Shown here: in pieces, positions 1 to 58,599 of the stretch
How positions within the stretch are numbered: position 1 is the stretch's first letter
Layout: each line of letters begins with the position of its first letter
Source of the DNA: an uncultured bacterium
GTDB lineage: Bacteria; Patescibacteriota; Minisyncoccia; UBA6257; 2-01-FULL-56-20
Direction: 5' to 3'
DNA length: 64,000 nucleotides
NCBI GenBank assembly: GCA_963844965.1
Contig: CAWJQC010000009.1
Location: forward strand, 62,037-126,036
Translations under genes and position numbers: made by a program
Notes under the pieces: generated by a model
Database searches by the model: none
The model's input: the letters and a program-made list of their open reading frames with translations, nothing else
What the model was told of the DNA's origin: nothing

Positions 1-1487
1 TCGTCTTTTTTCCCTCAAAATTCAAGCGTGCAACGACTTCCGCCGCGCACTCGGCAAATTCCCTTACCTCGTTCCATTGGGGCAAAATAAAGTCATTCTG
101 GCGCTCTCCCGCCTCTGGCGGCTTTGGCATCCTGCTTTCCAGTAAAGCAACCCGTGCCCGTAAATCGCTCTTGTATTCCTTCAGCTTCTCCATGCCTATC
201 AGCCCCGCCCCGTATGCCCTGTCATAGCGAGCTTCCTCGTCTTTCAACTTCTCAACGTCCCTTTTGAAATTGAAAATGGATATATCGGGGCGCGCCGCGC
301 TTTCTTTCTTTTTCCCGATAAACTTCTGCGCGTTTTTCATCATCAGTTCCGGCGAAGTCATAATCCCTGCCGTCTTTTTCCATACGAGCGCATCGGCTAT
401 CCTCGCGTTTATTCCCCGCTCGGCGCACTTCGGAGGCAAGGGGAAGCTGTGAACCCTATCCGTGCAGCGATAATAAAGATGTTTCCCGCGCTGCGGGCCT
501 TCTCCGGCCCGCCTTCTCCCGCATCCGCAGTAAATCTTCCCGCTCAAAAGATACTCGTTTTTCCGGTTTCGCTGGCACTCCGCGAAATTTACCGCAAGTT
601 GCCGCGCCGCCCGCTCAAATAATTCTCGGCTGATGAGGGCGGGTGTCGTTATTTTTATCCACTCCTCCTCCGGCCTCACCTTGCGGCTCGTCTTTTTGAT
701 TCTCCGGTAGCCCTCTTTCTTAAACGGATTCTCCGGCACGACGGCATAAGAGCTTCCATAATGCCCTTCGCCTATGTAGGTTTTATTCCTCAAAAGCGTT
801 GAAAGGGTGCTGGTATTCCAAACGCCCCGCGCGCTCCAGCGCGGCGCTATGCCCGCTTTCATAAGCTCCTTCACAACCTGCCGCAAAGTAAGCCCGTCAT
901 CGGCAATCCACGAAAATATCTTTTTAACAACGGTTGCCTCTTGTTCGTTGATTTCATAGCAGCCATGTTTCCCATCCGTTTCTTTTTTCGGCTTAAAAAT
1001 ATAGCCGTAGGGAGCTTCGCTGGTAATAATATGCCCCTCTTTTGCCTTCCGCAGTTTCCCAAGCCGGAAGCGCTCGGCGATTTTCGCCCTCTCATACTCG
1101 GCAAAAAGCCCCCTAACACCGTGCAGGATTTTCTCCTCGCTATTTTTCGGACGGAATGGTAACGAACAATACTTCAACTCCCGCCTCCCGTAGTTCGTCC
1201 ATCACCAATTCCTGATAAGAGTAGCGGCGGGCCAACCTATCTGGGTCATAAATCAAAACCGCTTCCCATATCTTCTTTTTCACGTCCTGCCGGAGCTGGT
1301 CGAGTTGAGGCCGCACGAGCGTGTCCCCGCTCCAGCCGTTATCAATGTATTCCTGCACGATGGTGTAGCCATTTTTCACGGCAAACTCCCGAACGGCGAC
1401 AAGCTGGGTTTCAATAGTGCCTTCATCCGGCGAGGTGCTGACACGGGCGTATATGGCAATCAATTTTATGATGGCGGCTTCGTTCAT
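1..1487 (-). CDS. large serine recombinase (resolvase-type catalytic domain + recombinase domain + Zn ribbon + coiled coil); runs past window start; frame broken at an A5 run near 1140-1160
   Basis: ORF 1140..1487 is a resolvase N-terminal catalytic domain (IAIYARVSTS, catalytic Ser). My manual translation of minus strand 1..1160 in the neighbouring frame is stop-free. It reads ILHGVRGLFAEYERAKIAERFRLGKLRKAKEG...SEAPYGY...GKIYCGCG...HLYYRCTDR, which is a recombinase domain plus Zn ribbon. The frames meet at ccgaaaaatagc; one extra A would fuse them. Confidence 0.8.
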
Positions 1488-1711
1488 CGTTTCGTGTTCT
1501 TATGTTTGCTTAAAAACTTTTGATATTCGCTTTTCGGTATGCGCCAGAGCGCCGTCCCTTTGCCGAGTTTATACCCGACCAACAGCCCCTTTTGAAGCCA
1601 GCGTTGAACTGTGCGGGGATGTATCCGCAGATTTTTAGCGATTTCGTCTTTCGTGAGAAACTCCATGCTTTTAATTCTATTCCCAATAGTCGCAGTTGTC
1701 AAAATTGTCAA
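1484..1711 (-). CDS. excisionase-family helix-turn-helix DNA-binding protein (Xis-like)
   Basis: 75 aa. LTKDEIAKNLRIHPRTVQRWLQKGLL...YKLGKG..WRI fits the excisionase/MerR-like HTH pattern. Its stop overlaps the recombinase start as ATGA. Confidence 0.6.
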   Translation of the reverse strand: MTILTTATIGNRIKSMEFLTKDEIAKNLRIHPRTVQRWLQKGLLVGYKLGKGTALWRIPKSEYQKFLSKHKNTKR

Positions 1712-1771
1712 AAGTGGACATCTTACCCCACCACCCCACTCACTATATCGTAGGCGTAAAACAATAGTGAG

Positions 1772-3298
1772 TTAGAGGGTGGGGTAAATGAGCATCCTCC
1801 TTCTATCGTCAGGGTCTGCTTCTTGGGCTATCAGTCCGGCATTTTCCAGCATCGGGATAATCTGTTGTCGCAAAAGCCAATCTGGGAGCGGCCGTCCATA
1901 CACTTGGAAGTGTTTTTGCGTTATTTCCCGTCTTGTAAGCCCGCATGGGGCGCTCGCCATACCATCATCATTCCTGCTTTGGTTCTTCTCCTCCCATAGA
2001 GGAATAATCACTTCGTTGAAAATCTGGTATACATACGGCGGCAGGTTCAGCTCTTGGCTTTCAGATATAGCGTCCCACACTTTAAAGGCATTTTTGATGT
2101 CATCCTCATTCGCCACGATGGTTGAGCCGTCTCTCTCCCTGAACCAAACATTCAACAAGGCAAATGCCTTAATAAGTGATAAAATACGTCCGATGTCTCG
2201 CTGGTGGCGCGGCTTCAACCTCTTGTTTGCGCTGAAAAATCCCTCCCCCACTTTTTCCGGCGTGCCTATTTTTATGTCGCTTATATGCGCCTGCCTAATT
2301 GCCAGTATCCGCTCTTTAAGAAGTTTGCGCTCCGGCTTTTCGTCCAACGCCAGTTGGTATGCTTCATTGTCGGCTTCTTTTCGTATTTTCTCATAAATTG
2401 CCTCCCGTATCTTTTCTTGGTCTGTCTGGGGACTTAACAATATAAATCTCGTCGTTTCCTGCTCGTCTGCTTTTAGTCCCGCCGTGCAAAAAATAACGGA
2501 GGGAAACCCCCTTAAAAATATATTTTTCGTTTTTAGCCCGCCTCGCTGTGTCTTATCGGTAATCTTGAGCTTTATCTCTTTTCTATCGTGCGAAAGTAGC
2601 GGGCGGAGATGTTGGAGAAGCAAGGTATGTGGCTGGTCAAGAAAAATGAGAATCTTACGGGACAAATCAACGACAAGTTCATTCGTCTCTTTTCTATACT
2701 CTTTTGCCTTATCGTGGAAAAATGCCGTTGGTGAGCAGTAGCCAAGTTCAATAATATCTTCTTGCGGAAATAATTGAGCAATTTCTGTTGGGATATAAGA
2801 TTTACCAGTTGAAGAGGGGGCATTAAAACTGATATTGAGTTGTGCGTTCTCGGTATAGGCGGAAAGCTCGCAAAGGAAAGTAATGAGCTTATTCTCTTCG
2901 TCTTTTTTGATGGTTATGCCAAGTATTTTAAGAATCTCTTCGGATGAAAGCGGCTTGAATTGCGAGGTGTCAATCGGCATTTCCGGCGCTGGTTCGGAGT
3001 TTGTGTCCGCCAAAGGAGGTGTTTCGGCTGCATCTGCTATCGCCCTTCTCTCTTTAGGAATGGTCTCTTGGGTTTCCTCAATTCCCATTTCCTTCAGGAT
3101 TTCGGTCAGTTCTGCTTCTTTTCTACAAAACCAACAAGTGCCACGCCCAGTTTCTGTATTGATATGTAGCGCATCCTTCGTGCCAGAGACAGCATCGGCG
3201 CAATAAGGACAGCCGATTCTTAAGAAGTTGCCCACGACTTCATACTCTATCTTATTTTTGTTGAGTAGTTTCTTTAGGTCTATTAGATTTATTTTCAT
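1772..3298 (-). CDS. primase/replication-like protein with N-terminal CxxC...CxxC zinc finger and P-loop NTPase motif
   Basis: 508 aa. GCPYCAD...CWFCRK is a zinc-binding motif; NAPSSTGKSY is a Walker-A-like motif. This architecture is typical of plasmid/phage primase-helicase-like replication proteins. Confidence 0.45.
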   Translation of the reverse strand: MKINLIDLKKLLNKNKIEYEVVGNFLRIGCPYCADAVSGTKDALHINTETGRGTCWFCRKEAELTEILKEMGIEETQETIPKERRAIADAAETPPLADTNSEPAPEMPIDTSQFKPLSSEEILKILGITIKKDEENKLITFLCELSAYTENAQLNISFNAPSSTGKSYIPTEIAQLFPQEDIIELGYCSPTAFFHDKAKEYRKETNELVVDLSRKILIFLDQPHTLLLQHLRPLLSHDRKEIKLKITDKTQRGGLKTKNIFLRGFPSVIFCTAGLKADEQETTRFILLSPQTDQEKIREAIYEKIRKEADNEAYQLALDEKPERKLLKERILAIRQAHISDIKIGTPEKVGEGFFSANKRLKPRHQRDIGRILSLIKAFALLNVWFRERDGSTIVANEDDIKNAFKVWDAISESQELNLPPYVYQIFNEVIIPLWEEKNQSRNDDGMASAPCGLTRREITQKHFQVYGRPLPDWLLRQQIIPMLENAGLIAQEADPDDRRRMLIYPTL

Positions 3299-3819: not shown

Positions 3820-4596
3820 TTAATAATTCCGTTTTATTGTTTTTTCTTGCCAAGTAAATAATTCGTCATCTGTGTTGCACACTTCTTTTATCCGTTTGTT
3901 CAGGGCATCCATAGCGTCATAAACCACTCGCCAGTTTTCTCTGGTTGCTGGCGGTTTCCCGAAAAATGCTTTGTAATATCCGACTATTCCCTCATAAATT
4001 TTAGACCAATCTATGGGTTCGCTCGCTCTATACTCATACATCGCACGACAAAGAAAATGCTCATTTTTATAGGGTGGAATTTGGCAATTTTGAGTTCCAA
4101 TGTACAACAGCGCCTTATCATCGTCATATTTTATCCCCATAGATTTTAGGCTAATTTTTGGTTTTGTGGTATTTTCTATCGTTTCTTTTTCATCGCCATC
4201 CGGTTTTGGAGCGATGGCATCAAATTTTTCCGTGTCAATCTCCAAAATATAAACCGGCTTATCGTAATCCTTATCTGGAGAAGAAACGAAGTTTGGCCGC
4301 TTTGGATAGGTGGGTTGCGGCGCATGAGGCGCAAACATGTGTATCTTTTTAAGAACAACGCGACCTTGCGCCATCCTCTCAAATCCTAATTTTATATCTT
4401 GGTCATCTAAACCCTCACTTAAGAGTTTCTCATGATATATCGGAATGTGAAGCGTTTTAATGCCAAACGGCCTCCGGTATTCCAGCGCATCATCTATTAC
4501 TCCTAAAAGTATTTCATATTTATTCTTCATTTTCATTGTCATTATTGCCTTTATTTTACCACCTTTTCCGCGCTCCGGCAACATAAAATCAGACAA
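3820..4596 (-). CDS. hypothetical protein (element cargo)
   Basis: 258-aa ORF with no recognisable motifs. The start may be the internal MKMKNKYEI. Confidence 0.4.
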   Translation of the reverse strand: MSDFMLPERGKGGKIKAIMTMKMKNKYEILLGVIDDALEYRRPFGIKTLHIPIYHEKLLSEGLDDQDIKLGFERMAQGRVVLKKIHMFAPHAPQPTYPKRPNFVSSPDKDYDKPVYILEIDTEKFDAIAPKPDGDEKETIENTTKPKISLKSMGIKYDDDKALLYIGTQNCQIPPYKNEHFLCRAMYEYRASEPIDWSKIYEGIVGYYKAFFGKPPATRENWRVVYDAMDALNKRIKEVCNTDDELFTWQEKTIKRNY

Positions 4597-4791
4597 AAAA
4601 CCGCCCCTTGCCGGCGGAAAATTCTCCCATTACGGATTACAGAAGGGGGTGGCAGGAGGGGCTGGAGATACCCTTTTTAGCGCCCCCATCATATCACTGG
4701 TGCTCATACGCACGCATCCCCTTAATATCGGGGGCATTGATACATACCCGATCCGATACCTGACCCTATGCTGTTTCCTTATAAAACCGCA

Positions 4792-12486: not shown

Positions 12487-12514
12487 TTGACAAATATATA
12501 GAATCTGCTACAAT
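12487..12514 (+). promoter_or_regulatory. sigma70-like promoter TTGACA-16nt-TACAAT
   Basis: TTGACAaatatatagaatctgcTACAAT, 85 nt upstream of the small ORF at 12600. Confidence 0.35.
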
Positions 12515-12599
12515 ATGAGCAGCACCACCGAGAAGATTCCGGTGGGCCAAAATCTGTAAACCGTCGCTTATCAAAGGCGACGGGACGAAGGAGGATGCC

Positions 12600-12806
12600 A
12601 TGGCGGCAAAAAAGGGAGTACCTGCTTTTCTGATTTCTTACGGCCAAGCTGGACGGGAACGGAACAATATCCGGACCGCAGAGGTTGTGGTGTGCGTGTT
12701 GGGTCGTTCCACTACCCACCACCTTGAACTTCGGGGTGGAAAGTGGCTTGGCAAGAACGGTGTGGAATACAAAATCAACGACCGCATCAGAAATCGTAAG
12801 AACTGA
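12600..12806 (+). CDS. small basic hypothetical protein (68 aa) with good SD; alternatively part of a structured non-coding transcript
   Basis: AGGAGGatgccATG precedes it. The protein is MAAKKGVPAFLISYGQAGRERNNIRTAEVVVCVLGRSTTHHLELRGGKWLGKNGVEYKINDRIRNRKN. It lies inside a promoter-to-terminator unit, 12487..13092. Confidence 0.3.
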   Translation: MAAKKGVPAFLISYGQAGRERNNIRTAEVVVCVLGRSTTHHLELRGGKWLGKNGVEYKINDRIRNRKN

Positions 12807-13063
12807 GAGGGTCCAAAAGCCCACCACCCAGGACCCTAATCGAGGAGAGTGAGCTGTGCCAAGTAGGTAGACCCGCCGCCGAGGCCTAAGTCGGGGGGTT
12901 GAGAGACCAAAAATTCAGTCAAAATAAAAACAAATCCCGCGCTGACCCCAGCCGGTTGTATCCAGGGTGATACCGGTCAAACAAAAATCCACACTGGCTC
13001 CGCGAAAGCGAGGCGAAGTCTGTAGAAGATAGCACTCTACAGAAGGCAGGGCGGCAGTGCCCC

Positions 13064-13092
13064 AGGAGAGTTGGAAGACTCTCCTTTTTTTA
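13064..13092 (+). terminator. rho-independent terminator
   Basis: The stem is GGAGAGT..ACTCTCC with loop TGGAAG, followed by TTTTTTT. Confidence 0.55.
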
Positions 13093-13165
13093 TTGTTCAC
13101 TCGCAAGAATACCCTATACCTTCTTGCAACGTGATGAGAAGGTGTAGGGATGAATTGCGATGTGT

Positions 13166-13350
13166 GAATAATAAACCCCTCCCCATTTGTGGCAGGGGTT
13201 TGGTGATAACACCCAGCGAGAGCCGTAAGGCGACTTCGTCTTTGTATGTCGTGTGCGCATAGTTTTTGCGGCAAATGGAGAGGGGTGAATAACCGCAAGA
13301 CCGCAGAGCGGCTTGGATACCGCACCGCTCTGCGGTGCGGTTATTCATTT
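13166..13350. repeat. structured intergenic repeat, family 1, copy A (about 185 nt, two long imperfect hairpins)
   Basis: gaataataaacccctccccatttg...caaatggagaggggtgaataaccgc...accgctctgcggtgcggttattcattt. Copy B is at 39175..39358. The hairpin arms are conserved and the interior has diverged. Confidence 0.6.
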
Positions 13351-15923: not shown

Positions 15924-16013
15924 GGAGGGGGCCGTGCCGTAAACCACCCCATATTATTGCCCCAGCTCCACCTTAAATCAATTATGTAAAATAATCATGA
16001 ATTAATCATGAAT

Positions 16014-16082
16014 CCCACACCTAATTGAGGAGCAACGCCTTATGTGTTGTTACCAATACTCCTCGTTAGGTGTGGGGATAAA
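16014..16082. repeat. hairpin repeat family 3, copy 1 (CCCACACCTAA..N40..TTAGGTGTGGGG ATAAA), 40 nt 3' of pgi-like gene
   Basis: cccacacctaattgaggag...ctcctcgttaggtgtggggataaa. Copy 2 is at 33606..33665, 3' of uvrA. Confidence 0.5.
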
Positions 16083-23462: not shown

Positions 23463-24833
23463 TTATTTTTTACTCTCTATCATTTCTTCGACCTTTAGCT
23501 TGGCTTCTTCTAATAATTCTTTTGCTTTTTTGCGGGCGGCGTGAGATTCGCGAATAAGTTCGGCGATTTTTTGCTGGGTTGGTTTGGGCAAAATTGGAAT
23601 TACAATATTCTCAACATCTTGATCGGTAATAGTTGGATAAGATGTGCCCGTTGTTGGTTTTTCCATTTGCAACTTACCGATGACGGACCGCAAAACAACC
23701 TGTAGATATTCGCGCGTCGGAGACGGGACTTCAAAAACCGAGAAGGCGCCACTCGCAACAAAGTTTTTGCTCCAGCTATCGGGCACGATTGCGATGGCAC
23801 CACGAGTGGGTCGAACTTTTGAAATCAACAGCTCGCCCCCGACAATTTTAATCTTGGCATTTGCGGGCAACTCTTTACCCAAGATCAAGTTACTAGAAAT
23901 TGCTCCGTTTCCAACGTTAACGTCGCTAATCTCGATATATTCGTATTGGACATCGGGCGCAAGCCCTGCCCGCCTTGCTGTTCGCTTAGCAATTTTGCCA
24001 AGAGGTTTTACATTTTCCCCCAAGAGTTTTATTAACTTTTGATACTTCGGCTGGAAAAATTCGGCGTCAATGCGATTCGCTTTTTTTGCTTCGGACAAAT
24101 TAACCACGCTCCATAATTCATTTTCCGATTCAAAATTCTTAAGCCCCAATTCTTCCAAAAGTAAATTTTCTGCTTGAGAGTATAGGGCATTTGCTTGATC
24201 CAAAGTGTTCTTGGCCCCAATCACCACATTGTTGATATCTTTGACGAATGCTTCTGATGGAATCGGATAAATCAAATCATAAACATCCTGGACATTTAAT
24301 TTGGGTTGAGCGTTCCCGCTAATTCTCCTCATAATCTGAGCAAAACCAAACCTAGAATTTAGAAAGGTTAACAGAAATATTTTTTGCTCCGGCATCACTT
24401 TCGAGTTTTTGAACTTGATACCGATGTTATTCTCACTTATATTACAAACTTCAAATTCTTCTGGCACGGCAGATACAATACCAATCGTGTTGCCAACTTT
24501 AGACATTATCAAGTCGAAGGGAGAAAGCTGAGATTGCTTTAGTCGGTCATTGTCCTTTTTTGAAATATATATGAGCTCGGTTTTATCAAGAAAAAAGTTT
24601 TGCAAATCAGAAATTCTCAAAAAAGGAATACCACTACTTACATAGGCACTACTTTTTAACGAGGAGCCGAAAGGGCCACTAACAACAACAGCGCTTTCTT
24701 TTAAGGTTTGTGTTCCGCCAGAAAATGATTTTATTTCGTTTATTAATTTCAAATACTCCGGCTGATAATATTCCGCATCCAGCCGGTACGCACCCTCCAG
24801 TTGAGATTTTTGGATGATAGAATAACTAACCAT
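23463..24833 (-). CDS. hsdS: type I restriction-modification specificity subunit HsdS (two target-recognition domains)
   Basis: 456 aa. The conserved RLDAEYYQPEY and IDAEFFQPKYQ repeats flank two variable TRDs. Confidence 0.85.
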   Translation of the reverse strand: MVSYSIIQKSQLEGAYRLDAEYYQPEYLKLINEIKSFSGGTQTLKESAVVVSGPFGSSLKSSAYVSSGIPFLRISDLQNFFLDKTELIYISKKDNDRLKQSQLSPFDLIMSKVGNTIGIVSAVPEEFEVCNISENNIGIKFKNSKVMPEQKIFLLTFLNSRFGFAQIMRRISGNAQPKLNVQDVYDLIYPIPSEAFVKDINNVVIGAKNTLDQANALYSQAENLLLEELGLKNFESENELWSVVNLSEAKKANRIDAEFFQPKYQKLIKLLGENVKPLGKIAKRTARRAGLAPDVQYEYIEISDVNVGNGAISSNLILGKELPANAKIKIVGGELLISKVRPTRGAIAIVPDSWSKNFVASGAFSVFEVPSPTREYLQVVLRSVIGKLQMEKPTTGTSYPTITDQDVENIVIPILPKPTQQKIAELIRESHAARKKAKELLEEAKLKVEEMIESKK

Positions 24834-25487
24834 TTATTTTCTATTCTCTTTTTTGAATTTAACCAGCTTGGCCATTATTGAATCATTTAAAACTATAGCT
24901 TTTTCAATAAATCTTTCGCAAAGCCTTATCTCTTTTCGCATTGTTTCCAGCCACGTCTTTTTGGTTAAAGATTTTTTTGATATTGGCCTAAAACTCCTGT
25001 CATAACCAGAAACAGCGGTGTCATAATAAATACGGTGAGTTAACATCTTTCGCTTTACTAATATCTCATGCATAACTTTGTCTTCGTTGAATTTCTCTAG
25101 ATCTTTTTTAACCGAAGATTTTCTGACCATAGAATCTTCAGTAAGTTTATTGAATAAAGAAGCTTTTTCTGAAAATTGCAGATCAAGAGAGGCGTTTATA
25201 AGTTGGCAAATTTTTTCCCTATACGAAAACGCTCTCAACCAAAAATTTTCCAGGTGGTAGCCCAGGGATTCAAAATCAGTTTCCTGATGAATCGGTGATA
25301 GCCAGCCCTTGCCTGTCATAATTATTTTCGCAGTCCTTTCACAAAGCAGGTACGTCCTGGCTGCCCTACTATAAACGTCAATCAAATCGGATATTTCTTG
25401 ACGGACCTCATTGTGATAGGCTTTCGCTTTCTTGGGAAACAATCGCCTATCAAAATCAAAAAATGGTTGCCCTTTTGTTTTTTTCAT
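24834..25487 (-). CDS. hypothetical protein inserted between hsdM and hsdS; HEPN-like Rx4H motif (candidate Abi-type effector)
   Basis: 217 aa. KRKMLTHRIYYD contains R-x4-H. Its position between hsdM and hsdS is typical of embedded defense genes such as PrrC or Abi. No protein-level match is recognised. Confidence 0.4.
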   Translation of the reverse strand: MKKTKGQPFFDFDRRLFPKKAKAYHNEVRQEISDLIDVYSRAARTYLLCERTAKIIMTGKGWLSPIHQETDFESLGYHLENFWLRAFSYREKICQLINASLDLQFSEKASLFNKLTEDSMVRKSSVKKDLEKFNEDKVMHEILVKRKMLTHRIYYDTAVSGYDRSFRPISKKSLTKKTWLETMRKEIRLCERFIEKAIVLNDSIMAKLVKFKKENRK

Positions 25488-25498
25488 TATTTTTTATC

Positions 25499-26806
25499 TC
25501 AAAAATCGAATTTTTGTTCCTTGGTAAATTTCACGAATGCCTCGGCGATTTCGTCCAAGTCGTGGTCAAGCACCTTACGGCCTTTAGAGCCGTGCACATA
25601 ACTACCGTTCGCGTCTTTTTTATAAATATAGTCACCAGAATTATCTTTGCTACCTTTTTTAGAGACCGCCATGAAAATTGGATAATCCTTTTGCGGTTTG
25701 CCAGTGTCGCCGCCCCATTTTTGTAAAAAGAGCACGCTTGTTTTTGTGCCGGTATGCGGCTTGAACGTGTTACCGTGAAGCCCGACGACGGCAAGAATAC
25801 GCGCTTTTTCAAAAAGCCACTCACGGATATATTCCATGTTGGTGTTGTTAAGCACGCCTTGCGGCAGAACGATTGCCAAGCGGCCGCCGGGACGGAGCAT
25901 GTCCAATGCGCGTTCAATAAATAAAATGTGTCGCTCAACGTTATTGCGAAGCTTACCTCCTTCTTTTTTTGCCAGTTCGTACTGGCGCAGAAGTCCCTGC
26001 TCCGGATTTTCTCCGGCGAAGGGCGGATTCGTGAGCAATATATCAAAATTCAAATGCCGATAGGTCAGATGATTTTCCTTGTCGCTTTCGCTATTATCCA
26101 AGGTTTGCAACAGAGGTTTAAGCGCCACGCGTGCTTCTTCCGCCTCCGGACCAGTCCACTCCCGCGAATCCAACGAATCACGTTTGAAAATATGGTGCTT
26201 GCCATCGCCAGCGATAAGCATTAATGCCTGCGATATCCGGCGCATGTTGTCGTCAAAGTCAATGCCAAAAAGATATTTTGCGGCGTAGGATTTTTTCGCC
26301 GCTTCGGTTTTTGAAAAATTGTCCCAGACATGATACATCGCGTGAAGGAGGAATCCGCCAGAGCCGCATGCCGGATCTACCACGTATTCGTTTTCTTTCG
26401 GGCTGAGCATCTTTACGCACATTTTAATGACATGCCGCGGCGTGAAATACTGCCCCTTTTTTCCCTTAGAAACTTCGGTGATGAGATGCTCAAACGCTCC
26501 ATCCACAATCTCGTATTCGCCCTGCCCAAGCTCAAATAAGCGAATATTTTCCACGAACGGCACGCAGATGTTAAGGCGTGCGGCGGTAAGCTTGATTTTA
26601 TCCGATGGTTCGAATGTGTCGGGCCACTCCTTGACCGCTTCCTTAAAAAGCCCGTTTACAACCTCGTAGGTTTTTTCGGCGTCTTTATATCTTCTAAACA
26701 ACACCTCCCTACTTTCCCTTTCTCGGATAGCCATTTGCTCATCGTAGAGCTTGGCGTAAATAAGCTTGAAGATTCTCTTCAAAAACATTACCGCCGGAGC
26801 CGGCAA
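25499..26806 (-). CDS. hsdM: type I restriction-modification N6-adenine DNA methyltransferase HsdM
   Basis: The protein is 435 aa. It has the AdoMet motif VVDPACGSGGFL and the catalytic motif LLTNPPFAG. Confidence 0.9.
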   Translation of the reverse strand: MPAPAVMFLKRIFKLIYAKLYDEQMAIRERESREVLFRRYKDAEKTYEVVNGLFKEAVKEWPDTFEPSDKIKLTAARLNICVPFVENIRLFELGQGEYEIVDGAFEHLITEVSKGKKGQYFTPRHVIKMCVKMLSPKENEYVVDPACGSGGFLLHAMYHVWDNFSKTEAAKKSYAAKYLFGIDFDDNMRRISQALMLIAGDGKHHIFKRDSLDSREWTGPEAEEARVALKPLLQTLDNSESDKENHLTYRHLNFDILLTNPPFAGENPEQGLLRQYELAKKEGGKLRNNVERHILFIERALDMLRPGGRLAIVLPQGVLNNTNMEYIREWLFEKARILAVVGLHGNTFKPHTGTKTSVLFLQKWGGDTGKPQKDYPIFMAVSKKGSKDNSGDYIYKKDANGSYVHGSKGRKVLDHDLDEIAEAFVKFTKEQKFDF

Positions 26807-27452
26807 GCGCTAATTCTTCTATACGCTTGACGACTTTTATGAAGTCAAACTTCGGGGTCAAATCGCTCCACGTTTTCTTAATTTCAAACAAATCGTCCAC
26901 TGTTTGATCGGCCGTTGGAATCTCGCTCAATGATTCATATTCTTTCGGATAGGGACGATATAAAATTACTTTATCCGTGCCGTTAGACCAGATGCCGATC
27001 TCCGACCCCTCCGCGCTCAAATACGCTTTTAATTGTTCCTGCCCTTTCTTTTCGCTGGGCGCCTTAACTTCGACAATAATGTACGGTGTGATTTTATCTT
27101 TCTTGTAAACAACGATGTCCGCGGCCTTTGCGTGAATTTCTCGTCCAAAGTGGATGCTTTTTTCTGTTTCCATTCGCTCAAACGGATATTTGTAGTTGGT
27201 GTGAAGTTTATATAACCAGAGTTGGCGGACGATTTCCTCCGGCCTGCCTGCGTTTTTCTTGGCATCAAAAACTAAACGTTTTTTACCGCTTTTCAGGTCG
27301 GCGATGAAAAAACGGCTTGGTTCGTCTTCGGTAATTTCGAGCGCCGCGTTAAATTCTACGCCCTCAAACTCTTTGAGACCGTAGAGCAGCTCGGTATCCT
27401 TAAAAATCTTTCCAATTATTTCCTCTGCTTTGTTTTGTTTTTTGGTGGGCAT
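26739..27452 (-). CDS. stand-alone HsdR N-terminal-like PD-(D/E)xK nuclease domain protein (HSDR_N family)
   Basis: 237 aa. KAADIVVYKKDKITPYIIVEVKAPS...QLKAYLSAEGSEIGIWSNGTDKV matches the HSDR_N pattern D..v...iivEvK...Q...Y...G..tNG. It overlaps the hsdM start. No helicase-type HsdR is present in the window. Confidence 0.6.
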   Translation of the reverse strand: MPTKKQNKAEEIIGKIFKDTELLYGLKEFEGVEFNAALEITEDEPSRFFIADLKSGKKRLVFDAKKNAGRPEEIVRQLWLYKLHTNYKYPFERMETEKSIHFGREIHAKAADIVVYKKDKITPYIIVEVKAPSEKKGQEQLKAYLSAEGSEIGIWSNGTDKVILYRPYPKEYESLSEIPTADQTVDDLFEIKKTWSDLTPKFDFIKVVKRIEELALAGSGGNVFEENLQAYLRQALR

Positions 27453-31674: not shown

Positions 31675-32733
31675 TTAATCCTCTTTCTCGCTGTGAAACA
31701 GGAAATCCAGAAACTTTTCGCCAAACGTCTTGGGAAGTTCAGGGTAACCGGTCGCCCTCCTTATCTCGCGCAGATGCAGTCTTGTCTCTTCGGCCCCGAT
31801 GCCGATGATCTCCCGCGCGCTGCCGAAGCTGAAGGTGCCAAAACCAAAGATCTGCGGCTTAATGACCACGTCCGCCTGCTTCAGTATGTTCTTGGCGAGC
31901 TGATACTCAACGATGCCCAGCGAGCTTGAGATAGCGGCATACATGCTTTTTGTATCTATCGCCTCGTCCGGCGAATCAGCCCATCGCGAAGAAACGTCAA
32001 CGGCTATAACATATTCAGCACCCATTTCCCTCACAATGTCCGCCGGCACCGGATTCACGAGGCCGCCATCCATCAGTAATTTGCCGCCGGCTTCAACTGG
32101 ACTGAAAATCAACGGCAGGGCGATGCTCGCATCCACGGCATCCATCAACTTACCGCTCTTCAAGATCACCTCATCCCCATTTCTCGCGTCAGTGGCCACG
32201 GCCACGAAAGGAACTTTACAATCCTTAAAACTAAGGTTATGGAATGACGATTTCAGCAAGTGGCTCACGGAATCGCCCTTAAAGAGCGCGCCTTTTTTAT
32301 GCCTCAGCATCTCCGTAACCGGGAAAATCTCGCGTGGCTTGATCTTTAAAAACAAATCTTCCAGAAATTCTATGTCTTCCGTGGCTGCGTACCAGGCGCC
32401 AACGAGCGCGCCCATGCTGGTTCCCGCAATAAAATCAATGGAGATGCCGGCGTTTTTTAAAACCTTAATAACGCCGATGTGCGCCAGACCCTTGGCTCCG
32501 CCGCCGCCGAGAGCGAGCCCCGTAGTGAGCCGAGCACCTCTTTTTTCTTTGCGCACCCGCGACAAGTTCATGATTTTTTTATAGGAATACGCACGACACA
32601 AATTCCAAATAGAACAAAACTGGCCAGTGCTCGGTCTACTACGGGGCGAGACCGATTTTTTTCGTTTTGGGTGCTTTGGCCATGCCGACCGATGTTCAAT
32701 CGCCCAGAAGCACGTATACCGCGCATTTGCCAA
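31675..32733 (-). CDS. patatin-like phospholipase
   Basis: GLALGGGGAKGLAHIGV is the oxyanion motif. AGTSMG is the GxSxG motif. MDGGLVNPVP is the DGG motif. The likely start is the internal MNLSRVRKEK. Confidence 0.8.
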   Translation of the reverse strand: MANARYTCFWAIEHRSAWPKHPKRKKSVSPRSRPSTGQFCSIWNLCRAYSYKKIMNLSRVRKEKRGARLTTGLALGGGGAKGLAHIGVIKVLKNAGISIDFIAGTSMGALVGAWYAATEDIEFLEDLFLKIKPREIFPVTEMLRHKKGALFKGDSVSHLLKSSFHNLSFKDCKVPFVAVATDARNGDEVILKSGKLMDAVDASIALPLIFSPVEAGGKLLMDGGLVNPVPADIVREMGAEYVIAVDVSSRWADSPDEAIDTKSMYAAISSSLGIVEYQLAKNILKQADVVIKPQIFGFGTFSFGSAREIIGIGAEETRLHLREIRRATGYPELPKTFGEKFLDFLFHSEKED

Positions 32734-33481: not shown

Positions 33482-33605
33482 AAGCTCCCAGCGGTAACTT
33501 TAAAACGGCTGAATATAATATAGGTTACCGCGGGAATTTTTGCAAATAAACAAAAGCGTTTCCCTACGCTATACCAGCACCTTCCTCAAATATTGCCCGG
33601 TAAAT

Positions 33606-33665
33606 CCCCACACCTAACAGCGAGCAGGTTTTACTCTGTTACTCGCCATTAGGTGTGGGGATAAA
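33606..33665. repeat. hairpin repeat family 3, copy 2, immediately 3' of uvrA
   Basis: ccccacacctaacagcgagc...gctcgccattaggtgtggggataaa. Confidence 0.5.
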
Positions 33666-33676
33666 ACTTCCCATCA

Positions 33677-36200
33677 TTAAACCAATACCTTCCTAAGATA
33701 CTGTCCGGTGAAGCTCCCTGCCCTGCGGCTGATTTGCTCCGGCGTGCCTAGGGCGACAATCTTGCCGCCCTTCTCGCCGCCTTCGGGACCGAGATCAACC
33801 ACCCAGTCGGCGCATTTAATAACGTCCAAGTTATGTTCAATCACAACGACCGTGTTGCCGCGGTCAACAAGCTTTTGCAGAACCAAAAGCAGTTTATCCA
33901 CGTCGTCAAAATGTAGGCCGGTCGTCGGCTCGTCCAAAAGATAAAGGGTGCGGCGCGTGTCACGTTTACCGAGCTCCGCCGACAAGTTTCATCCGCTGTG
34001 CCTCGCCGCCGGACAATGTCGTTGCCGACTGGCCAAGCGTCAAGATAGTCCCAAGCCGACCTCTTCCAAAATCAAGAGCTTGTCGTGGAGCCACGGGATA
34101 TCATTGAAGAAATCCACCGCTTCTTCAATCGTCATCTTTAAAATGTCATAAATATTTTTCCCTTTATATTCACACTTCCAGCGTTTCGCGGTCAAACGTT
34201 TTCCCTTGCAAACATCGCAGGTGACGATAGACCGTCGGCAGGAAATGCATTTCAATCGCAATCGTGCCGTGCCCTTCGCAATTTTCACACCGCCCGCCCG
34301 GCACGTTGAAACTGAACCGGCCCGGTTTATATCCGCGGACTCGAGCATCCTCCGTGGCCGCAAAAGATCGCGGATATAAGTCCACGCGCCTACATAAGTC
34401 GCGGGATTTGAACGCGGCGTCCTGCCGATCGGCGACTGGTCAATGTTGATAACACGATTAACATATTCCACGCCCGAGATCGCTTTTATGCCACCCGCTT
34501 TGTAATTGCGCGTGATAAAATTTATCGGCCAGATTTTTATAAAGCACGTCGTATACCAAGCTGATTTACCCGAACCGGAAACGCCGGTGACCGCCGTAAA
34601 ACGCCGGAGCGGGATATCCACGTCAATATTTTTCAGGTTATTCGCGCGTCGCGCCACGAATCTTCAGGAATTCATGCGCTTCGGAGATATTTCCGCTTCG
34701 CGTTTCTGGAACTTCAATGAATTTTTTGCCGCGAAGATATTGCAGCGTGAGCGAATCTTCTTCTTTATCCTTTATGATGTCTGGCAATCGGCCTGTCGGC
34801 TACGATTTTTCCGCCATGAATGCCCGCCCCCGGACCGATATCCACCAAATAATCCGATTCGCTGATTGTTTCCTCGTCGTGCTCAACGACGATGATCGTA
34901 TTCCCCAAATCGCGCAGATTGTGCAGGGTCGCGATCAATTTGGCGTTGTCCCGCTGATGGAGACCGATTGTCGGCTCGTCCAAAATATAGAGCGTGCCTA
35001 CGAGCCGCGAGCCGATCTGCGACGCCAAGCCGAATTCTCTGCGCCTCGCCGCCAGACAGCGTGCCCGCTTTCCTGTCAAGCGTCAGATAATCCAAACCGA
35101 CGTCCATCATGAATTTCAGCCGGCTTTTGATCTCGCGAAGCGGTGCTTCGGCAACGGCCTTCCGCTTTCGCTTTTCAGACTTAAACCTCCGAAAAAATTC
35201 ATAGTGCTTCGTCGATGGAGAAGCGCAGTGACGGAGTTAATATTTTTGTCGTTTACGAGTACGTTCAAGCTTTCTTCCTTGAGCCGCTTGCCTAGGCAGA
35301 CCGGACAGATTTCCTCCGACCAAATATCCTTCGTTCCCAAACCGTGGCAGGCGGGACAAGCGCCGTACGGGCTATTGAACGAAAAAAGTCGCGGCTCAAT
35401 TTCCGGGAAAGAAAAGCCGTCGTGCGGACAGGTGAATTGGGCGGAAAGCGAGACTTCCTTGTCGGTGATAACCGTAACGACGTCGTTGCCGTATTTGAGC
35501 GCCGATTCGATCGCTTCGGCAAGACGCAAACGATTATCCTTATCGCTGAAATCTATTTCCGCCGGCAACCGGTCGACGACAAGCTCAATCGTGTGCTGCT
35601 TATAGCGGCTGAGTTCAATGCGATCGCGCAGTGATTGAAATTTGCCATCTATGCGCACTTCGGAAAAACCGGCGTTCAGAAAATCGTAAAGCATTTGGTA
35701 ATATTCCCCTTTCCTGCCACGCACGACCGGCGCCAAAATCACCAGATTTTTCCCTTCTTTGTCGTTTTTCGCGATATCGATCGCCACATCAACGATTTCC
35801 TCGTTCGTAAGTTTCTTGATTTCCCTGCCGCAGCGCGGGCAGAAAGGTTTGCCGACACGCGCGAAAAGAACACGGAGATAATCATAGATCTCGGTGATGG
35901 TTGCTACCGTGGAGCGTGGATTGGAGGAATGGCTTTTCTGGTCAATGGAAATCGCCGGCGAAAGTCCCTCAATCTCGTCCACGTCAGGTTTGTCCAGACG
36001 TCCCAAAAACTGCCGCGCGTAGGCGGAAAGCGACTCAATGTAGCGCCTTTGTCCTTCGGCGAAAATCGTGTCAAAGGCCAAACTGGACTTGCCGGACCCG
36101 AAAGACCGGTGAAAACTATCATTTTGTCGCGCGGGAGCTCAAGATTAATATTCTTAAGGTTGTGTTCCCGCGCACCTTTTATGATAATTTTGTCATGCAT
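33677..36200 (-). CDS. uvrA: excinuclease ABC subunit A (UvrA), split into at least 5 ORFs by single-nucleotide frameshifts
   Basis: The five ORFs (35904..36200, 35116..36081, 34765..35110, 34040..34657, 33677..33985) together give a colinear UvrA with Walker A, CxxC Zn modules, ABC signature and the second ATPase domain. At Walker A, gggtccgg reads GLSGPAS; adding one t restores [23 protein letters not shown], so this is a homopolymer indel. Confidence 0.85.
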
Positions 36201-36363: not shown

Positions 36364-36888
36364 ATGGGTAAGAACGAAAAAAACACGGACGGATCTTGCG
36401 GATGGAGTTATCACAGAAAACTGGGTCAAATCGCAAAATTTATGAAAATTCTGGGTGTCCTGCTCCTTCTGACTCTGAGAACTATCCCCGCATGGGCAGC
36501 GCTCGGTCAGTACGAGTCGTCAGTAAGTGTGGACCAGCAGTATCTGCGCAGCGAGGACCGCGTCCAGAACTTCCAGGGTTACAAAATTCACCAGCTAACG
36601 ACTGCGAACGGCACAATAATTCGAGAGTACGTCTCGCCGAAAGGTCTGGTCTTTGGAGTCGCCTGGCAGGCGCCCTTTATGCCCAACATGCAGCAGTTGT
36701 TGGGGTCATACGTTACGAACCTCCAGACAGCCTCGCGAACTCAGACCCAGGTCCGGCACCTCAGGGGACTGATCGTGAAAATGAATGATTTCGTGTTCGT
36801 CAGCGGCGGTCACATGCGGTTTTGGAAGGGAAGCGCCTACGTGCCCAGCCTAGTTCCCAACAACGTCTCCGTGGAGGTGGTGCGATGA
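36364..36888 (+). CDS. secreted hypothetical protein (DUF2844-like, recalled), partner of the downstream lipoprotein
   Basis: The probable start is MKILGVLLLLTLRTIPAWA, a signal peptide. The GC content is visibly higher than the flanks. Its stop overlaps the next ATG as ATGA. Confidence 0.45.
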   Translation: MGKNEKNTDGSCGWSYHRKLGQIAKFMKILGVLLLLTLRTIPAWAALGQYESSVSVDQQYLRSEDRVQNFQGYKIHQLTTANGTIIREYVSPKGLVFGVAWQAPFMPNMQQLLGSYVTNLQTASRTQTQVRHLRGLIVKMNDFVFVSGGHMRFWKGSAYVPSLVPNNVSVEVVR

Positions 36889-38224
36889 CTCTGGTAAATT
36901 GTTCGAAAGCAACATTAGCCTGCTTTCTTGCAGTAGTCACGGGACTGATCCTTTTGGATGGTTGCGGCAACAATAATAGCAACAGCAACATTATCAGTAC
37001 ACCTCCTCCGCCTACGAGTAATACAGCGCCAGTAACGGTCGGCTTTGGGGTCTTGGGACCGTCGGGTGGATATGTGAATGGGATTTGGACGACGGTGACC
37101 ATCTGTGCACCCAGCAGTACCACCAATTGCCAGACGGTCAATGATGTACTCGTGGACACAGGTTCCTTCGGCCTACGCGTTCTCAACTCAGCGCTCACCA
37201 CCGTTCCAGCGAGCTCGCTGGGAACGATTACGAGCAACGGCAGTCAGTTGCAGGAATGTGTCCAGTATGGGGACACAGCCTATACTTGGGGACCTGTGAT
37301 GCTGGCGGATGTTGGGATTGAGGGAGAGAAGGCCTCCTCAATTCCTATTCAGGTCATTGGAGGCAATTCATTCGATGTCCCTGGTGCTTGCACCGCAATC
37401 CCAATTAACCCCGGTCTTCCAAATGCGGGCAACGACGATACCTTAGACGCGCTTGGCGCCAACGGGATCCTGGGTGTCGGCGGTTACGCATGGGACTGCG
37501 GCCCTACTGCGAGAACGTTGTTGCTGGTGACCCCTATTACCTTTGTCCCAGCGGCCAATGCGAGCAAGTCGGGGTTCCACTCCAGTATCAAGTCACAAGC
37601 CCGGTCGCAGCGTTTTCCTCGTCGGATAACAATGGAGTGTTAATCACCCTGACGTCCATTTCGGCGAGCGGAGCTGCCGATGGGACGGTTTCTGGCTCGT
37701 TGATTTTTGGAATCGGAACCCAAACTGACAACGCCCTCGCTGGTAGCGCCACGGTTTATGGGGTCGACGAGTACGGCAACATTCCAGAGATTACCTACAA
37801 CGATTTCCAATACACCCCTCCCAACAACACGAACATCTTAGATACCGGATCGAATGCGATCTATTTTCTGGACGCCAACACCCTGGCCTCGGCTGGAATT
37901 ATCGAGTGCGCGGATGCCCCGGGTTTCTATTGTCCAAACAATACTATTCCGTTCACTACAACCTTTTCGGGCGCGAACGGCACATCGGGGGCGATAACGT
38001 TCAGCATTGCGGATGCGAATATATTGTTCGCAAGCGGCAACGCGGCGTTCAACGACTTGGGAGGCGATGGTGGCACCAGCCCTTCTAATGATAGTTTGGA
38101 CTTCGGATTGCCATTTTTCTTCGGTAAGAGCGTGTACGTCGGAATGATGCCGGGATTGTTCACGGGTGAGAGCGCTGCGCCAAGCGCCGCGACAAGCGCG
38201 ACGTACGGATATTACGCGTTTTAG
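36885..38224 (+). CDS. pepsin-like (A1-type) aspartic peptidase lipoprotein; frameshift near 37500
   Basis: Lipobox LILLDGC. The first catalytic motif is VLVDTGSFGLRV. The flap is ECVQYGDTAY (Tyr-Gly). The second motif is NILDTGSNAIYF, found in ORF 37490..38224. The two ORFs join colinearly. Confidence 0.55.
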
Positions 38225-38682: not shown

Positions 38683-39117
38683 TTAGCGTGAAAATTTCAC
38701 CGGTATCCGCACCTCCCTGTCATTTTGCGGCAAACCGGAAGGATTGTCGTTATGGAGAACAAGCGTGCCGGCCTCGGTTGTCGGCGCGGTGAAGGTCAGT
38801 GTCGCCTTGAACGGCACGAAGTCGTTAGTCGTCCATTCCGATTGGGCCTGCGCCTGCGCGCGCGCAATTTCGTTGCCGTTGCCATCCAAAAGCCACACCG
38901 GAAAAACCGCTTCAAAGTACCAGCTGCCACGCGCCTCGCCGACGACTTCCAGCGGACTTTCCACAACACCACCGATGAGTAGCGAAGTAATCTTTATTGT
39001 GTCGGAGACATACAGCTGGCCATCCGATCTTTCAACAAGAGGATTGTACTTCAAGGCGAAGATCGCAGCCGCGACCACTATCAACAAGACGACAATGATG
39101 ATTATGATCTTCTTCAT
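38683..39117 (-). CDS. membrane-anchored Gmad2 immunoglobulin-like domain protein
   Basis: N-terminal TM helix. VGEARGSWYFEAVFPVWLLDGNGNEI...FVPFKATLTF...GTLVLHNDNPSGLPQNDREVRIPV matches the Gmad2 pattern. Confidence 0.55.
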   Translation of the reverse strand: MKKIIIIIVVLLIVVAAAIFALKYNPLVERSDGQLYVSDTIKITSLLIGGVVESPLEVVGEARGSWYFEAVFPVWLLDGNGNEIARAQAQAQSEWTTNDFVPFKATLTFTAPTTEAGTLVLHNDNPSGLPQNDREVRIPVKFSR

Positions 39118-39174
39118 ATTATTATTTCTCCGCAGAATACCTCGCCGCTTTGCGGCGAGGATAAATGTGGCTAA

Positions 39175-39358
39175 GAAATAATAAACCCCTCCTCATTTGT
39201 GGCAAAAATTGCGCCATCGCAATATCAGAGCCGTAGGGCGACTTCGTCTTCGTATGGTGCATATGCATAGATTTTACAGCAAATGGGGAGGGGTGAATAA
39301 CCGCTTGACCACAGGGCGTTGCGGATATCACACCGCTCTGCGGTGCGGTTATTCATTT
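39175..39358. repeat. structured intergenic repeat, family 1, copy B
   Basis: gaaataataaacccctcctcatttg...caaatggggaggggtgaataaccgc...caccgctctgcggtgcggttattcattt, same orientation as copy A. Confidence 0.6.
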
Positions 39359-39475
39359 GTGTTTCCGCATTGCGTTCCTCGCTCCGGAGATCTTCAGATA
39401 TTTCCTGTAACGGAAACTGGACGGCGTGCGATATGCCGGTTTCCCTTGGCGATTCCCAACTTTGGCGTAATTTTT

Positions 39476-39596
39476 CATCCCGTTAGAAGCAGGTCACGGT
39501 CATACCGCTCCCGCATAAATTTGCTATTTTACCAAGTTTTATATAAAGCATCAGATAATCTCTTGCCGCAACGCGACCGCGGCTTCTAACGGGATT
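39476..39596. repeat. MITE-like element, family 2, copy 1 (about 121 bp, about 20-bp terminal inverted repeats ATCCCGTTAGAAGC...)
   Basis: catcccgttagaagcaggtcac ... gaccgcggcttctaacgggatt. Copy 2 is at 57419..57542. Confidence 0.55.
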
Positions 39597-57046: not shown

Positions 57047-57421
57047 TTACGCGAATATTTTTTGAAGCTTGCACGCGAGCGAACCGTCGTATTGCCGTTC
57101 GCCATCCTTTATAATTTTCACGCCCGCAACCACCGAGGATATTATCTTCTCTTCCAGAACATCCGTGGACCCCACAAGATTGTTGAACAAGCCACGCGCG
57201 TCTTTGAGCGGCCTAGCCGACTCAAACGTCCATTTGCTGCGGCTGCTCTGCTTCAGCAAAAATTTTTCGGCGAGGACCGAAATCTTCCCGATTTGGCGCA
57301 TGTCGCCGTTTTTCGCGATAAGCGCGAGAAAATTTTTTATCACAAACTCCTCGCGCTCTTCCGGAGTCCGCGCGGCTACCTCGGCGAATGCTTTGGCATA
57401 TGTTTGTGGGGAATATTTCAT
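57047..57421 (-). CDS. atpH: F-type ATP synthase delta (OSCP) subunit, short
   Basis: MKYSPQTYAKAFAEVAAR is a typical delta N-terminus. The C-terminal pattern is ...GVKIIKDGERQYDGSL. Its ATG is formed by the terminal GGGATG of the MITE-like element. Confidence 0.7.
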   Translation of the reverse strand: MKYSPQTYAKAFAEVAARTPEEREEFVIKNFLALIAKNGDMRQIGKISVLAEKFLLKQSSRSKWTFESARPLKDARGLFNNLVGSTDVLEEKIISSVVAGVKIIKDGERQYDGSLACKLQKIFA

Positions 57422-57542
57422 CCCGTTAGAAGCAGATCGCAATCGGCGACCTGCACAAAAATTTGTTTGATTTGCGATGATTGTTTATTCATTTATAAAA
57501 ATTTCATAATTATTCTAAGCGATCGCGGCTTCTAACGGGATT
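57419..57542. repeat. MITE-like element, family 2, copy 2, inserted exactly between atpF stop and atpH start
   Basis: catcccgttagaagcagatcgc ... gatcgcggcttctaacgggatt. The last nt is the first nt of the atpF TGA, and the first three nt are the complement of the atpH ATG. Confidence 0.6.
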
Positions 57543-58367: not shown

Positions 58368-58599
58368 ACTTTAATTAATTTCTAATTTCTAACATCTAAA
58401 CGACCCTACGACCTTTTGTATTTAATCCTAATTTTCTATTTTCTGCTTAGTGCGCCGCCTCGTGCCCAGTAGTAGACCGAGCACTGCAACGCTCCCACGC
58501 TTTCTTCTGCTACAAACTTGGCACTGGCAAATTCTTTGTTATTTCTCATAATTATTGGTTTTGCCCTGTAGCGTTGTAGAAAATGATGTGCTCGGCTCA

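Follow-up and report, generated by a model that had tools for sequence, protein, structure and literature searches.

Among the described repeats, those closest to the element analysed here are the REP/BIME and REPIN sequences, which are mobilised by RAYT proteins of the HUH Y1 type, and the PATEs of IS200/IS605, all of them non-coding, multi-copy, extragenic mosaics of hairpins. The Correia elements (NEMIS/CREE) of Neisseria are gene-adjacent units of ~100-150 bp bounded by inverted repeats, with outward promoters and hairpins in their transcripts. ERIC/IRU and the pneumococcal BOX elements are imperfect palindromes of 100-250 bp located in transcribed intergenic regions, classical MITEs are small, non-coding, multi-copy sequences with presence/absence polymorphism, terminal inverted repeats (TIR) and target-site duplications (TSD), and the RNA families of Rfam 15 include multi-helix, covarying structures with GNRA-type loops. 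The genomes of Patescibacteria (CPR) are very small, with closely spaced genes, and the general view is that they contain few mobile elements.

Our analysis of a 64-kb stretch of DNA from an uncultured member of this phylum (hereafter the window) concerned two copies, A and B, of an intergenic repeat built of three hairpins, H1, H2 and H3. In our comparison it would best fit as a relative in kind of REP/BIME/REPIN, PATEs, ERIC, BOX and Correia elements that is a member of none of these groups. Like REP and PATE sequences it has neither TIR nor TSD, its fold is strand-asymmetric and its arms co-evolve; however, its units are much longer (a 111-nt core in a composite of 240-260 nt) and carry no GTAG-type head, the sequence of the H1 apical hairpin is not conserved, and the host belongs to the Patescibacteria. 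Absence of TIR and TSD, subterminal hairpins and strand-asymmetric structure, all observed here, are also the features expected of HUH-type elements. The layout of H2, with -35-like boxes at the inner edges and the -10 just outside the arm, recalls Correia elements, yet the latter possess 26-bp TIRs, a TA duplication and an IHF site, whereas here no TSD was seen, the H2 arms are 15-17 bp of unrelated sequence and the mobile unit is the three-hairpin composite, not H2 alone. The modular A-B-C build of BOX is comparable to the succession H1-H2-H3, and effects on the expression or mRNA stability of neighbouring genes are proposed for both; in contrast to ERIC and BOX, with which it has no sequence similarity, our element resides in another host phylum and combines a conserved apical motif with covariation across deep lineages. 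Of the characters of a classical MITE, small size, lack of coding capacity, multiple copies and presence/absence polymorphism were found, but not TIR and TSD, and no Rfam 15 family reached its threshold.

We rate the chances somewhat better than even that the repeats are copies of a non-autonomous, hairpin-based mobile intergenic element of ~240-260 bp. It would be a previously uncatalogued structured mobile intergenic repeat in a phylum for which the literature searched holds no such element, no repeats of this kind being described there for CPR, Patescibacteria or Saccharibacteria. Members of the family insert into start/stop overlaps of operons, retain a covarying fold in lineages far apart and appear to supply their own stop, promoter and ribosome-binding signals. 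If confirmed, the element would serve to mark strain-level variation and to follow genome dynamics in these uncultured organisms, account for puzzling long intergenic gaps in Patescibacteria operons and hint at a mobilising enzyme or an RNA function yet to be discovered. Annotation pipelines repeatedly derive spurious small ORFs and altered gene ends from it.

Extent, architecture and distribution

The preliminary description of the window had reported a 185-nt repeat at 13166..13350 and 39175..39358, with conserved hairpin arms and a diverged interior. Both copies and the reported hairpins exist; the extent was too short, however, since the alignment of 8-10 copies with unrelated flanks placed the true start ~75 nt further 5', delimited the unit from TTATTxTTCAC (5') to GGTTATTCAT (3') and added a hairpin, H1, that had been missed (Table 1). 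Copies A and B can be aligned colinearly over their length, and signature 20-25-mers of the repeat occur at two places only in the 64 kb (chance expectation 0.00-0.01). The sequence of copy B is identical in an independent assembly (Logan ERR10755942), and the folds of both copies are far more stable than those of their dinucleotide shuffles, whichever strand is taken (z -5.7 to -9.7).

The RNAalifold consensus revealed three consecutive long hairpins on the + strand. H1 consists of an invariant base, TTATT/AATAA, a covarying lower stem, in which CACTCGCAA/TTGCGAnnnGTG is replaced by CTGCCCGC/GCGGCAnGCAG in other copies, and an apical hairpin wholly different in sequence and length among copies; compensatory changes were found at 6 of its pairs. 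The H2 arms (15-17 bp, ACCCCTCCCCATTTG/CAAATGGGGAGGGGT) enclose small hairpins and the 24-nt motif AGAGCCGYARGGCGACTYCGTCTT, which is identical between copies A and B at 23 of 24 positions and is the most conserved stretch of the element, so that the supposedly diverged interior is in part more conserved than the arms. A covariance model of this core, R1, scored 99.1 bits for H2 of copy A and 117 bits for that of copy B. H3 has an asymmetric bulge and a strongly conserved 3' arm, and in copy A it was flagged as terminator-like. H1 and H3 are lineage-specific, and H2 is the ~111-nt core common to distant Patescibacteria.

Table 1. Positions of the two copies, their hairpins and adjoining features in the window
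Feature	Position	Strand	Remarks
Copy A, whole three-hairpin element	13090..13348	+	259 nt
Copy A, hairpin H1	13090..13174	+	TTATTGTTCAC-TCGCAA ... apical ... TTGCGA-TGT-GTGAATAATAA
Copy A, hairpin H2 (family core)	13175..13286	+	arms 13175-13189, 13272-13286; motif 13219-13242
Copy A, hairpin H3	13287..13346	+	GAATAACCGC...GCGGTTATTC, then AT
Copy A, promoter-like site	13168..13195	-	-35 CTGCCA, 16-nt spacer = H2 arm, -10 TATTAT
Copy B, whole three-hairpin element	39119..39356	+	238 nt
Copy B, hairpin H1	39119..39184	+	consensus fold
Copy B, hairpin H2	39185..39294	+	arms 39185-39199, 39280-39294; motif 39227-39250
Copy B, hairpin H3	39295..39354	+	terminal TCAT at 39353-39356
Copy B, promoter-like site	39178..39205	-	TTGCCA-16-TATTAT, 10/12 matches, toward Gmad2 gene
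41-aa basic ORF	39353-39478	-	MKNYAKVGNRQGKPAYRTP... / MKNYAKVGNRQGKPAYRTPSSFRYRKYLK...; marks copy B insertion site

An exact-pattern scan of GTDB species genomes found three further copies (L001-L003) in the MAG CAZWBU01, labelled uncultured Candidatus Saccharibacteria, and one (L004) in a Patescibacteria MAG from the Hainich aquifer. Searching metagenomes with a degenerate form of the 24-nt motif gave 14 loci, and since the motif served as the search pattern its apparent conservation is inflated. L005, L010, L015 and L017 are additional copies of the window type, L018 is the L004 contig again, and L007-L009 were rejected as chance matches within coding sequence. A divergent subfamily (L006, L011/L016, L012, L013 and L014) has the H2 core alone in common with the window type, with co-varied arms, and its flanking hairpins are unrelated in sequence and equivalent in architecture. 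Model R1 also detected diverged H2-like units without the exact motif (L001 27-139, L003 4585-4719). Homologues of the proteins flanking the window copies come from organisms named Parcubacteria, Paceibacteria and Liptonbacteria, which identifies the window as part of a Patescibacteria chromosome, and its gene content is ordinary (ATP synthase, uvrABC, type I restriction-modification, a two-component system and others).

Rfam, a check proposed in the preliminary description, gave no family: Rfam 15 yielded 0 matches in the window at the gathering score, and at E<=10 four copies and three subfamilies matched chance-level generic hairpin models only (miRNA precursors at E ~1). Phage and plasmid collections contained no similarity to the element, 5,426 E. 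coli genomes no sequence match to it, and two patterns found nothing in IMG/VR.

Several additional structures were observed in the course of these searches. Locus L001 (- strand) carries two H2-type cores in tandem (27-139 and 259-369), 120 nt apart and in one orientation, the first belonging to a full three-hairpin element and the second being a bare, diverged core. At L003, a diverged H2-like unit (4585-4745) lies directly upstream of a near-consensus promoter, TTGACA-N16-TACAAT, which its last bases overlap, ~550 nt ahead of the 16S rRNA gene of the CAZWBU01 MAG. Within the window, long intergenic hairpins with C-rich/G-rich arms (ATCCCCACACCTAA..., TTACCCCACCACCCC...) were noted at 33604-33662, ~16003-16082 and 1723-1787; similar to the arms of H2 in the divergent subfamily (ACCCCCACACCTACTGG), they may be short relatives belonging to one superfamily with the element.

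Covariation and strand bias of the fold

Pairing within the element covaries across 13-17 related copies from Patescibacteria MAGs and metagenomes. In the H2 core (13 sequences), 98.2% of cells were paired, and 9 pairs and 25 cells were changed on both sides, 7 of the pairs of the outer stem showing double changes. None of 500 column shuffles reached the observed pairing, double changes (by pairs or by cells) or covariation score, and when the 3' partner was slid by 1-3 columns only 39-58% of cells paired. For the whole element (8 sequences), 95.9% of cells were paired and 13 pairs carried double changes, again matched by 0 of 500 shuffles, with pairing in 40-48% of cells in the slid controls. 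In the diverged H2 units of L001 (27-139) and L003 (4585-4719), two small inner hairpins are kept by compensatory changes, from GCC/GGC to GCU/AGC and from GAC/GUC to GGC/GCC.

Between the two window copies, 81% of paired columns and 58% of unpaired columns are identical, in agreement with the earlier remark that substitutions avoid the stems. Of the 73 pairs that can be compared, 54 are the same in A and B, 8 have one partner substituted and still pair, 5 have both partners substituted in a compensatory way, and 6 have lost pairing in one of the copies. The preliminary description had also held that substitutions preserve pairing, and compensatory changes do exist, but all five between A and B are located in H1, beyond the 185 nt first reported. 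Its suggestion of a structure under selection rather than a coding repeat held, as the further copies diverge compensatorily and not at random.

The fold of the + strand was the more stable one in 12 of 13 cores (mean difference 5.4 kcal/mol) and in all 8 whole elements (9.4 kcal/mol), and wobble-only pair cells numbered 50 on the + strand against 13 on the - strand, a comparison that favours the + strand, mostly in the less robust inner helices, because the fold was predicted on it. On account of the covariation relative to shuffles and of the strand bias, a single-stranded fold of the + strand is under selection, either as RNA or as single-stranded DNA.

Insertion sites and signals on the gene strand

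Both window copies are insertions. In the direction of the genes, the copy B site reads DUF763, DUF167, a 47-aa ORF, a MITE-like element, a 41-aa ORF, copy B and a gene with a Gmad2 domain (38683-39117) that adjoins copy B. Two relatives, L020 (GCA_040960625.1) and L021, are syntenic with this site (Gmad2 protein identity 62% and 76%), and both copy B and the MITE-like element are absent from it; the 41-aa ORF overlaps the Gmad2 start (ATGA) in L020 and ends ~10 nt before it in L021. Conserved in position and sequence in these two relatives and without a Pfam family, this ORF is probably a real, unannotated small protein. The MITE-like element had been placed 118 nt after copy B; the interval (118-120 nt) is this conserved ORF and not a spacer. 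At the copy A site, 997 nt separate a 111-aa gene from the PBP gene (start 12397), made up of a 45-nt spacer, copy A and a 694-nt stretch with promoter, orphan ORF and terminator; in L022, L023 and L024, with a 111-aa protein 76-83% identical, the PBP gene follows after 14-28 nt. Flanking genes at both sites thus abut or overlap in the syntenic relatives, with 0-28 nt between them, and no copy was present in ~43 kb fetched from relatives that lack the element at the window sites. The three copies of CAZWBU01 are near-identical over the full unit, including the H1 apical hairpin, and lie between unrelated flanks; therefore, the multiplying unit is the whole three-hairpin element.

Flanks of 10 copies, the three near-identical ones of CAZWBU01 among them, compared as the preliminary description had proposed, contain no TSD past the conserved ends of the element itself, and no match to a known IS end was found. 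TIRs are absent as well: the unit ends are direct repeats, TTATT(A)TTCAC (5') and GGTTATTCAT (3'), and inverted arms within the unit belong to the internal H2 module only. The TTATT of the left boundary is invariant in all copies, as a conserved 4-5-nt target just 5' of the left end of an HUH-type element would be, and also forms the base of H1 by pairing with AATAA, so that it may be element sequence and not target. Two candidate duplications were considered and rejected. A TSD of 4-5 bp (TTCAT) for the whole unit fits copy B alone, and for H2 as a separate MITE with a TGAATAA duplication, an AATAA-like flanking repeat is seen in the window type and none in the divergent subfamily, where no TA or other duplication surrounds H2 either.

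No neighbouring gene is conserved among the copies, and copies from different genomes never occur in the same gene context. A scan of ~67 neighbouring proteins disclosed no transposase or recombinase near any copy, nor any Y1/RAYT protein, and the sole recombinase domain of the window is a truncated resolvase (1140-1487) ~12 kb from copy A. Read in reverse complement, the flanks of locus L013 are homologous to flanks of two other loci (L011, 5' side; L012, 3' side), whereas its H2 interior is homologous in direct orientation; the H2 module has therefore either been turned round between its flanks or entered in the opposite orientation. This flip, one event among ~17 loci, is treated as evidence for a separable H2 module, not for a programmed switch.

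On the strand opposite to the motif, a gene starts within 16 nt of H1 in 6 of 10 window-type copies (copy B, L002, L004, L010, L015 and L017); copy A is an exception, with the nearest such gene (PBP) ~690 nt off. The element of L002 lies between hicB-like and hicA-like ORFs, as identified by reading of the sequence. At the entry end, ATGAATAA on the - strand offers stops in two of three frames, and among the 9 copies whose right flank is known, the upstream gene ends at the terminal TGA in four (copy B, L002, L010 and L017) and at a touching TAA in a fifth (L004). In copy B the TGA within the terminal ATGAATAA is the stop of the 41-aa ORF, the final TCAT being read as ATGA. A sigma-70-like layout, TTGNCA-16-TATTAT, was called on the - strand of both window copies and is readable throughout the window type, where the other copies have TTGTCA, TTGCTA or TTACCA upstream of the spacer and TATTAT or TATTTT downstream of it. 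SD-like GAGTG/GGAG stands at the exit end, directly ahead of the downstream start codon; the ATG of the Gmad2 gene is preceded by GGAGAAATAATAAT, which stems from the outer end of H1 of copy B. Transcription is predicted to begin within H1, so that the leader would retain the inner H1 hairpin and have GAGUGAAUAAUAA or GGAGAAAUAAUAA ahead of the ATG. All of these signals (promoter, SD and stop) are putative, being matches to consensus sequences in an AT-rich background.

Members of the divergent subfamily (L006, L011-L014) do not have the promoter pattern, and their H3 side abuts gene starts on the motif strand. The abutted gene encodes ribosomal protein S8 in L006 (by peptide reading) and a PilB-like protein in L012, and L014 is located upstream of an L3-like gene. 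Hence, the family enters even junctions of ribosomal-protein operons.

A coding function of the repeat was considered and rejected, as the sole spanning ORF (13097-13348, -) is not kept in frame in other copies: the - strand ORF MNNRTAERCG..., 83 aa long in copy A, measures 43 aa in copy B as well as in L001 and is frame-shifted in L002, L010 and L017.

Other features were observed next to the two sites. Upstream of copy A, a sigma-70-like promoter, TTGACA-N17-TACAAT (12489-12517, +), leads into ~570 nt with a strong fold (MFE -217.9 kcal/mol, z -5.1), and the stretch ends at an intrinsic terminator (13064-13090) abutting copy A. It includes a 68-aa ORF (12600-12806) with a good SD, no homologue in 5.8 billion proteins and no Pfam hit, and the whole ~1 kb at this site is absent in three relatives; 12489-13090 is a candidate for a large ncRNA or an orphan gene cassette. 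The MITE-like family beside copy B has two members, 39477-39595 and 57420-57541, with 14-bp arms (ATCCCGTTAGAAGC/GCTTCTAACGGGAT). The 47-aa ORF takes its TAG stop, and the next ORF part of its ATG, from the copy at 39477-39595, which lies inside an ATGA stop/start overlap and appears to have AT duplicated.

Proposed mode of movement and alternative explanations

As a mobile element, the unit would land in very short, AT-rich gene junctions. We infer a single-stranded, hairpin-recognising movement, like that of IS200/IS605-type and REP sequences, because TIRs and target duplications are absent, and a structure that matters on one strand would fit the strand bias of the fold. Its tolerance in compact operons would follow from the signals that it carries on the strand of the neighbouring genes, with stops in two frames at the entry end and a sigma-70-like promoter, a 5' hairpin and an SD-like sequence at the exit end. 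As neither a partner transposase nor an autonomous copy was found, the mechanism of movement is conjecture. From the GC skew of the window, the better-folding, C-rich + strand is read as the template of the leading strand, a reading based on two copies only; this placement is against mobility and differs from the known insertion orientation of IS608-type elements. Likewise, an identical 24-nt apical motif in spite of arms and flanks diverged by >40%, together with GNRA-type loops in small + strand hairpins, looks more like functional RNA than like selfish DNA. Mobility and an RNA function are not exclusive, and the fold may be what the mobilising machinery recognises.

The main rival, in our judgement a rather unlikely one, is a multi-copy family of structured non-coding RNA genes on the + (motif) strand. 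H2 would then be the folded functional core, comprising a closing stem, an internal loop and small hairpins (3-4), the hairpins on either side (H1, H3) would serve in protection or processing, and new copies would arise by duplication or transfer. The + strand bias of fold and wobble pairs, covariation in all helices including the small inner hairpins, GNRA-type loops on the + strand (GUAA, GCAA and GAAA in Pb, GAAA in L012, GUAA in L015) and the retention of the 24-nt motif across subfamilies, which is in part due to ascertainment, would all be expected of RNA, and copies A, L001 and L005 directly follow the terminator of an upstream + strand unit, so that read-through could express them. However, no conserved + strand promoter sequence precedes H1, the 5' end is 1-16 nt from a divergent start codon in 6 of 10 copies, the U-tract after H3 is not consistent, and Rfam offers no match. 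The copies are moreover operon-junction insertions, near-identical within one MAG, and the orientation of the H2 core varies with respect to the genes beside it and also, in L013, to the flanks of the core itself. That the H2 core (~111 nt), as a module common to classes of Patescibacteria, is more than a passenger hairpin and has a function of its own in a new system, as RNA or as single-stranded DNA, is unlikely. Its apical motif, written as RNA AGAGCC-GNRA-GGC-GAC-UNC-GUCUU, is accompanied by a covarying closing stem and small inner hairpins; such a module might be a mobile RNA that guides or recruits an enzyme, in the manner of omega or bridge RNAs, or the structure that is recognised and cleaved in single-strand transposition of a new type, and the three-hairpin composite would in either case be its vehicle.

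A host cassette of terminator and promoter, vertically inherited and lost in relatives, agrees with the terminator-like H3, the promoter-like site toward the downstream gene and the usual position between co-directional genes; we regard it as very unlikely in view of its absence from two sites in five syntenic relatives with overlapping or abutting genes, three near-identical copies at unrelated loci of one MAG and a gene context that is never the same between genomes. Flipping of H2 as an inverton, its 15-17 bp inverted arms serving as recombination sites and its orientation altering the expression of the adjacent gene, is highly improbable. The inverted H2 interior of L013 relative to flanks homologous to L011 and L012 does suggest it, as do the promoter-like -35 boxes at the inner edges of H2 and the secreted or pilus proteins encoded by several neighbouring genes, yet one of ~17 loci is flipped, between lineages rather than within a population, and all 10 copies of the window type are oriented alike. 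A -35-like box (TTGCCA or TTTACA) would also be equidistant from TATTAT either way, so that a flip would not silence the promoter, and no invertase is adjacent, the recombinase fragment of the window being truncated and 12 kb away. Hardly credible, finally, is an integron attC-type recombination site marking gene cassettes, with GAATAAC...GTTATTC as the boxes of H3 and an unpaired bulge. H3 is indeed an imperfect palindrome of ~60 nt with AAC...GTT at its base and an asymmetric bulge (AAGA vs T), and a small cassette with an orphan ORF, missing from relatives, precedes copy A; but of the boxes RYYYAAC and GTTRRRY only AAC/GTT fit, 2/3 of the Y and 2/3 of the R positions failing, copy B brought no ORF along, the window encodes no integron integrase, and H1 and H2 would be left unexplained.

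A number of further candidates were dismissed. Resemblance of the motif to group II intron domain V (GAGCCGUAU...) is not accompanied by conservation of the required distal pairing or by an Rfam hit. Known RNAs (5S, SRP, tmRNA, RNase P, 6S and Y RNA), as well as HEARO/omega RNA, T-box and riboswitches, gave no Rfam hit at the gathering score or at E<=10. Prophage att sites and phage put-like RNAs are at variance with the lack of phage or plasmid similarity and the ordinary chromosomal context, a CsrA sponge (GGA in loops) with just 2-3 motifs per element, and SD/anti-SD mimicry by the H2 arms is a mere low-complexity resemblance. The 68-aa ORF beside copy A was rejected as a partner protein, having no homologue among the 5.8 billion proteins.

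The window contains other features of interest. A second family of ~130 bp bounded by inverted repeats is present at 32517-32647 and 58464-58608 in opposite orientations, with 21-nt arms (GCCCCGTAGTGAGCCGAGCAC and its partner) that hold TAG and TGA stops; the copy at 58464-58608 supplies the stop of the ATP synthase A-chain gene (58600-59331). At 1140-3298 (-), an HTH/excisionase-like 75-aa ORF is followed by the truncated serine recombinase (115 aa, resolvase N-terminal domain only), with degenerate sequence (1-1140) downstream and an adjacent 508-aa zinc-finger/ATPase protein without a Pfam match; the region looks like the remnant of an integrated element. Split genes were recorded at 36822-38224, 46781-48926 and 34040-36081, with DUF3443 as two overlapping ORFs, uvrB in two ORFs (46781-47683 and 47631-48926) and uvrA as fragments only; these splits reflect frameshifts, pseudogenes or errors of assembly. 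A type I restriction-modification cluster at 23463-27452 (-) comprises an S subunit, an N6 methylase and an HsdR N-terminal fragment, with an embedded HEPN (Cthe_2314-like) gene; the cluster occupies the lowest-GC part of the window.
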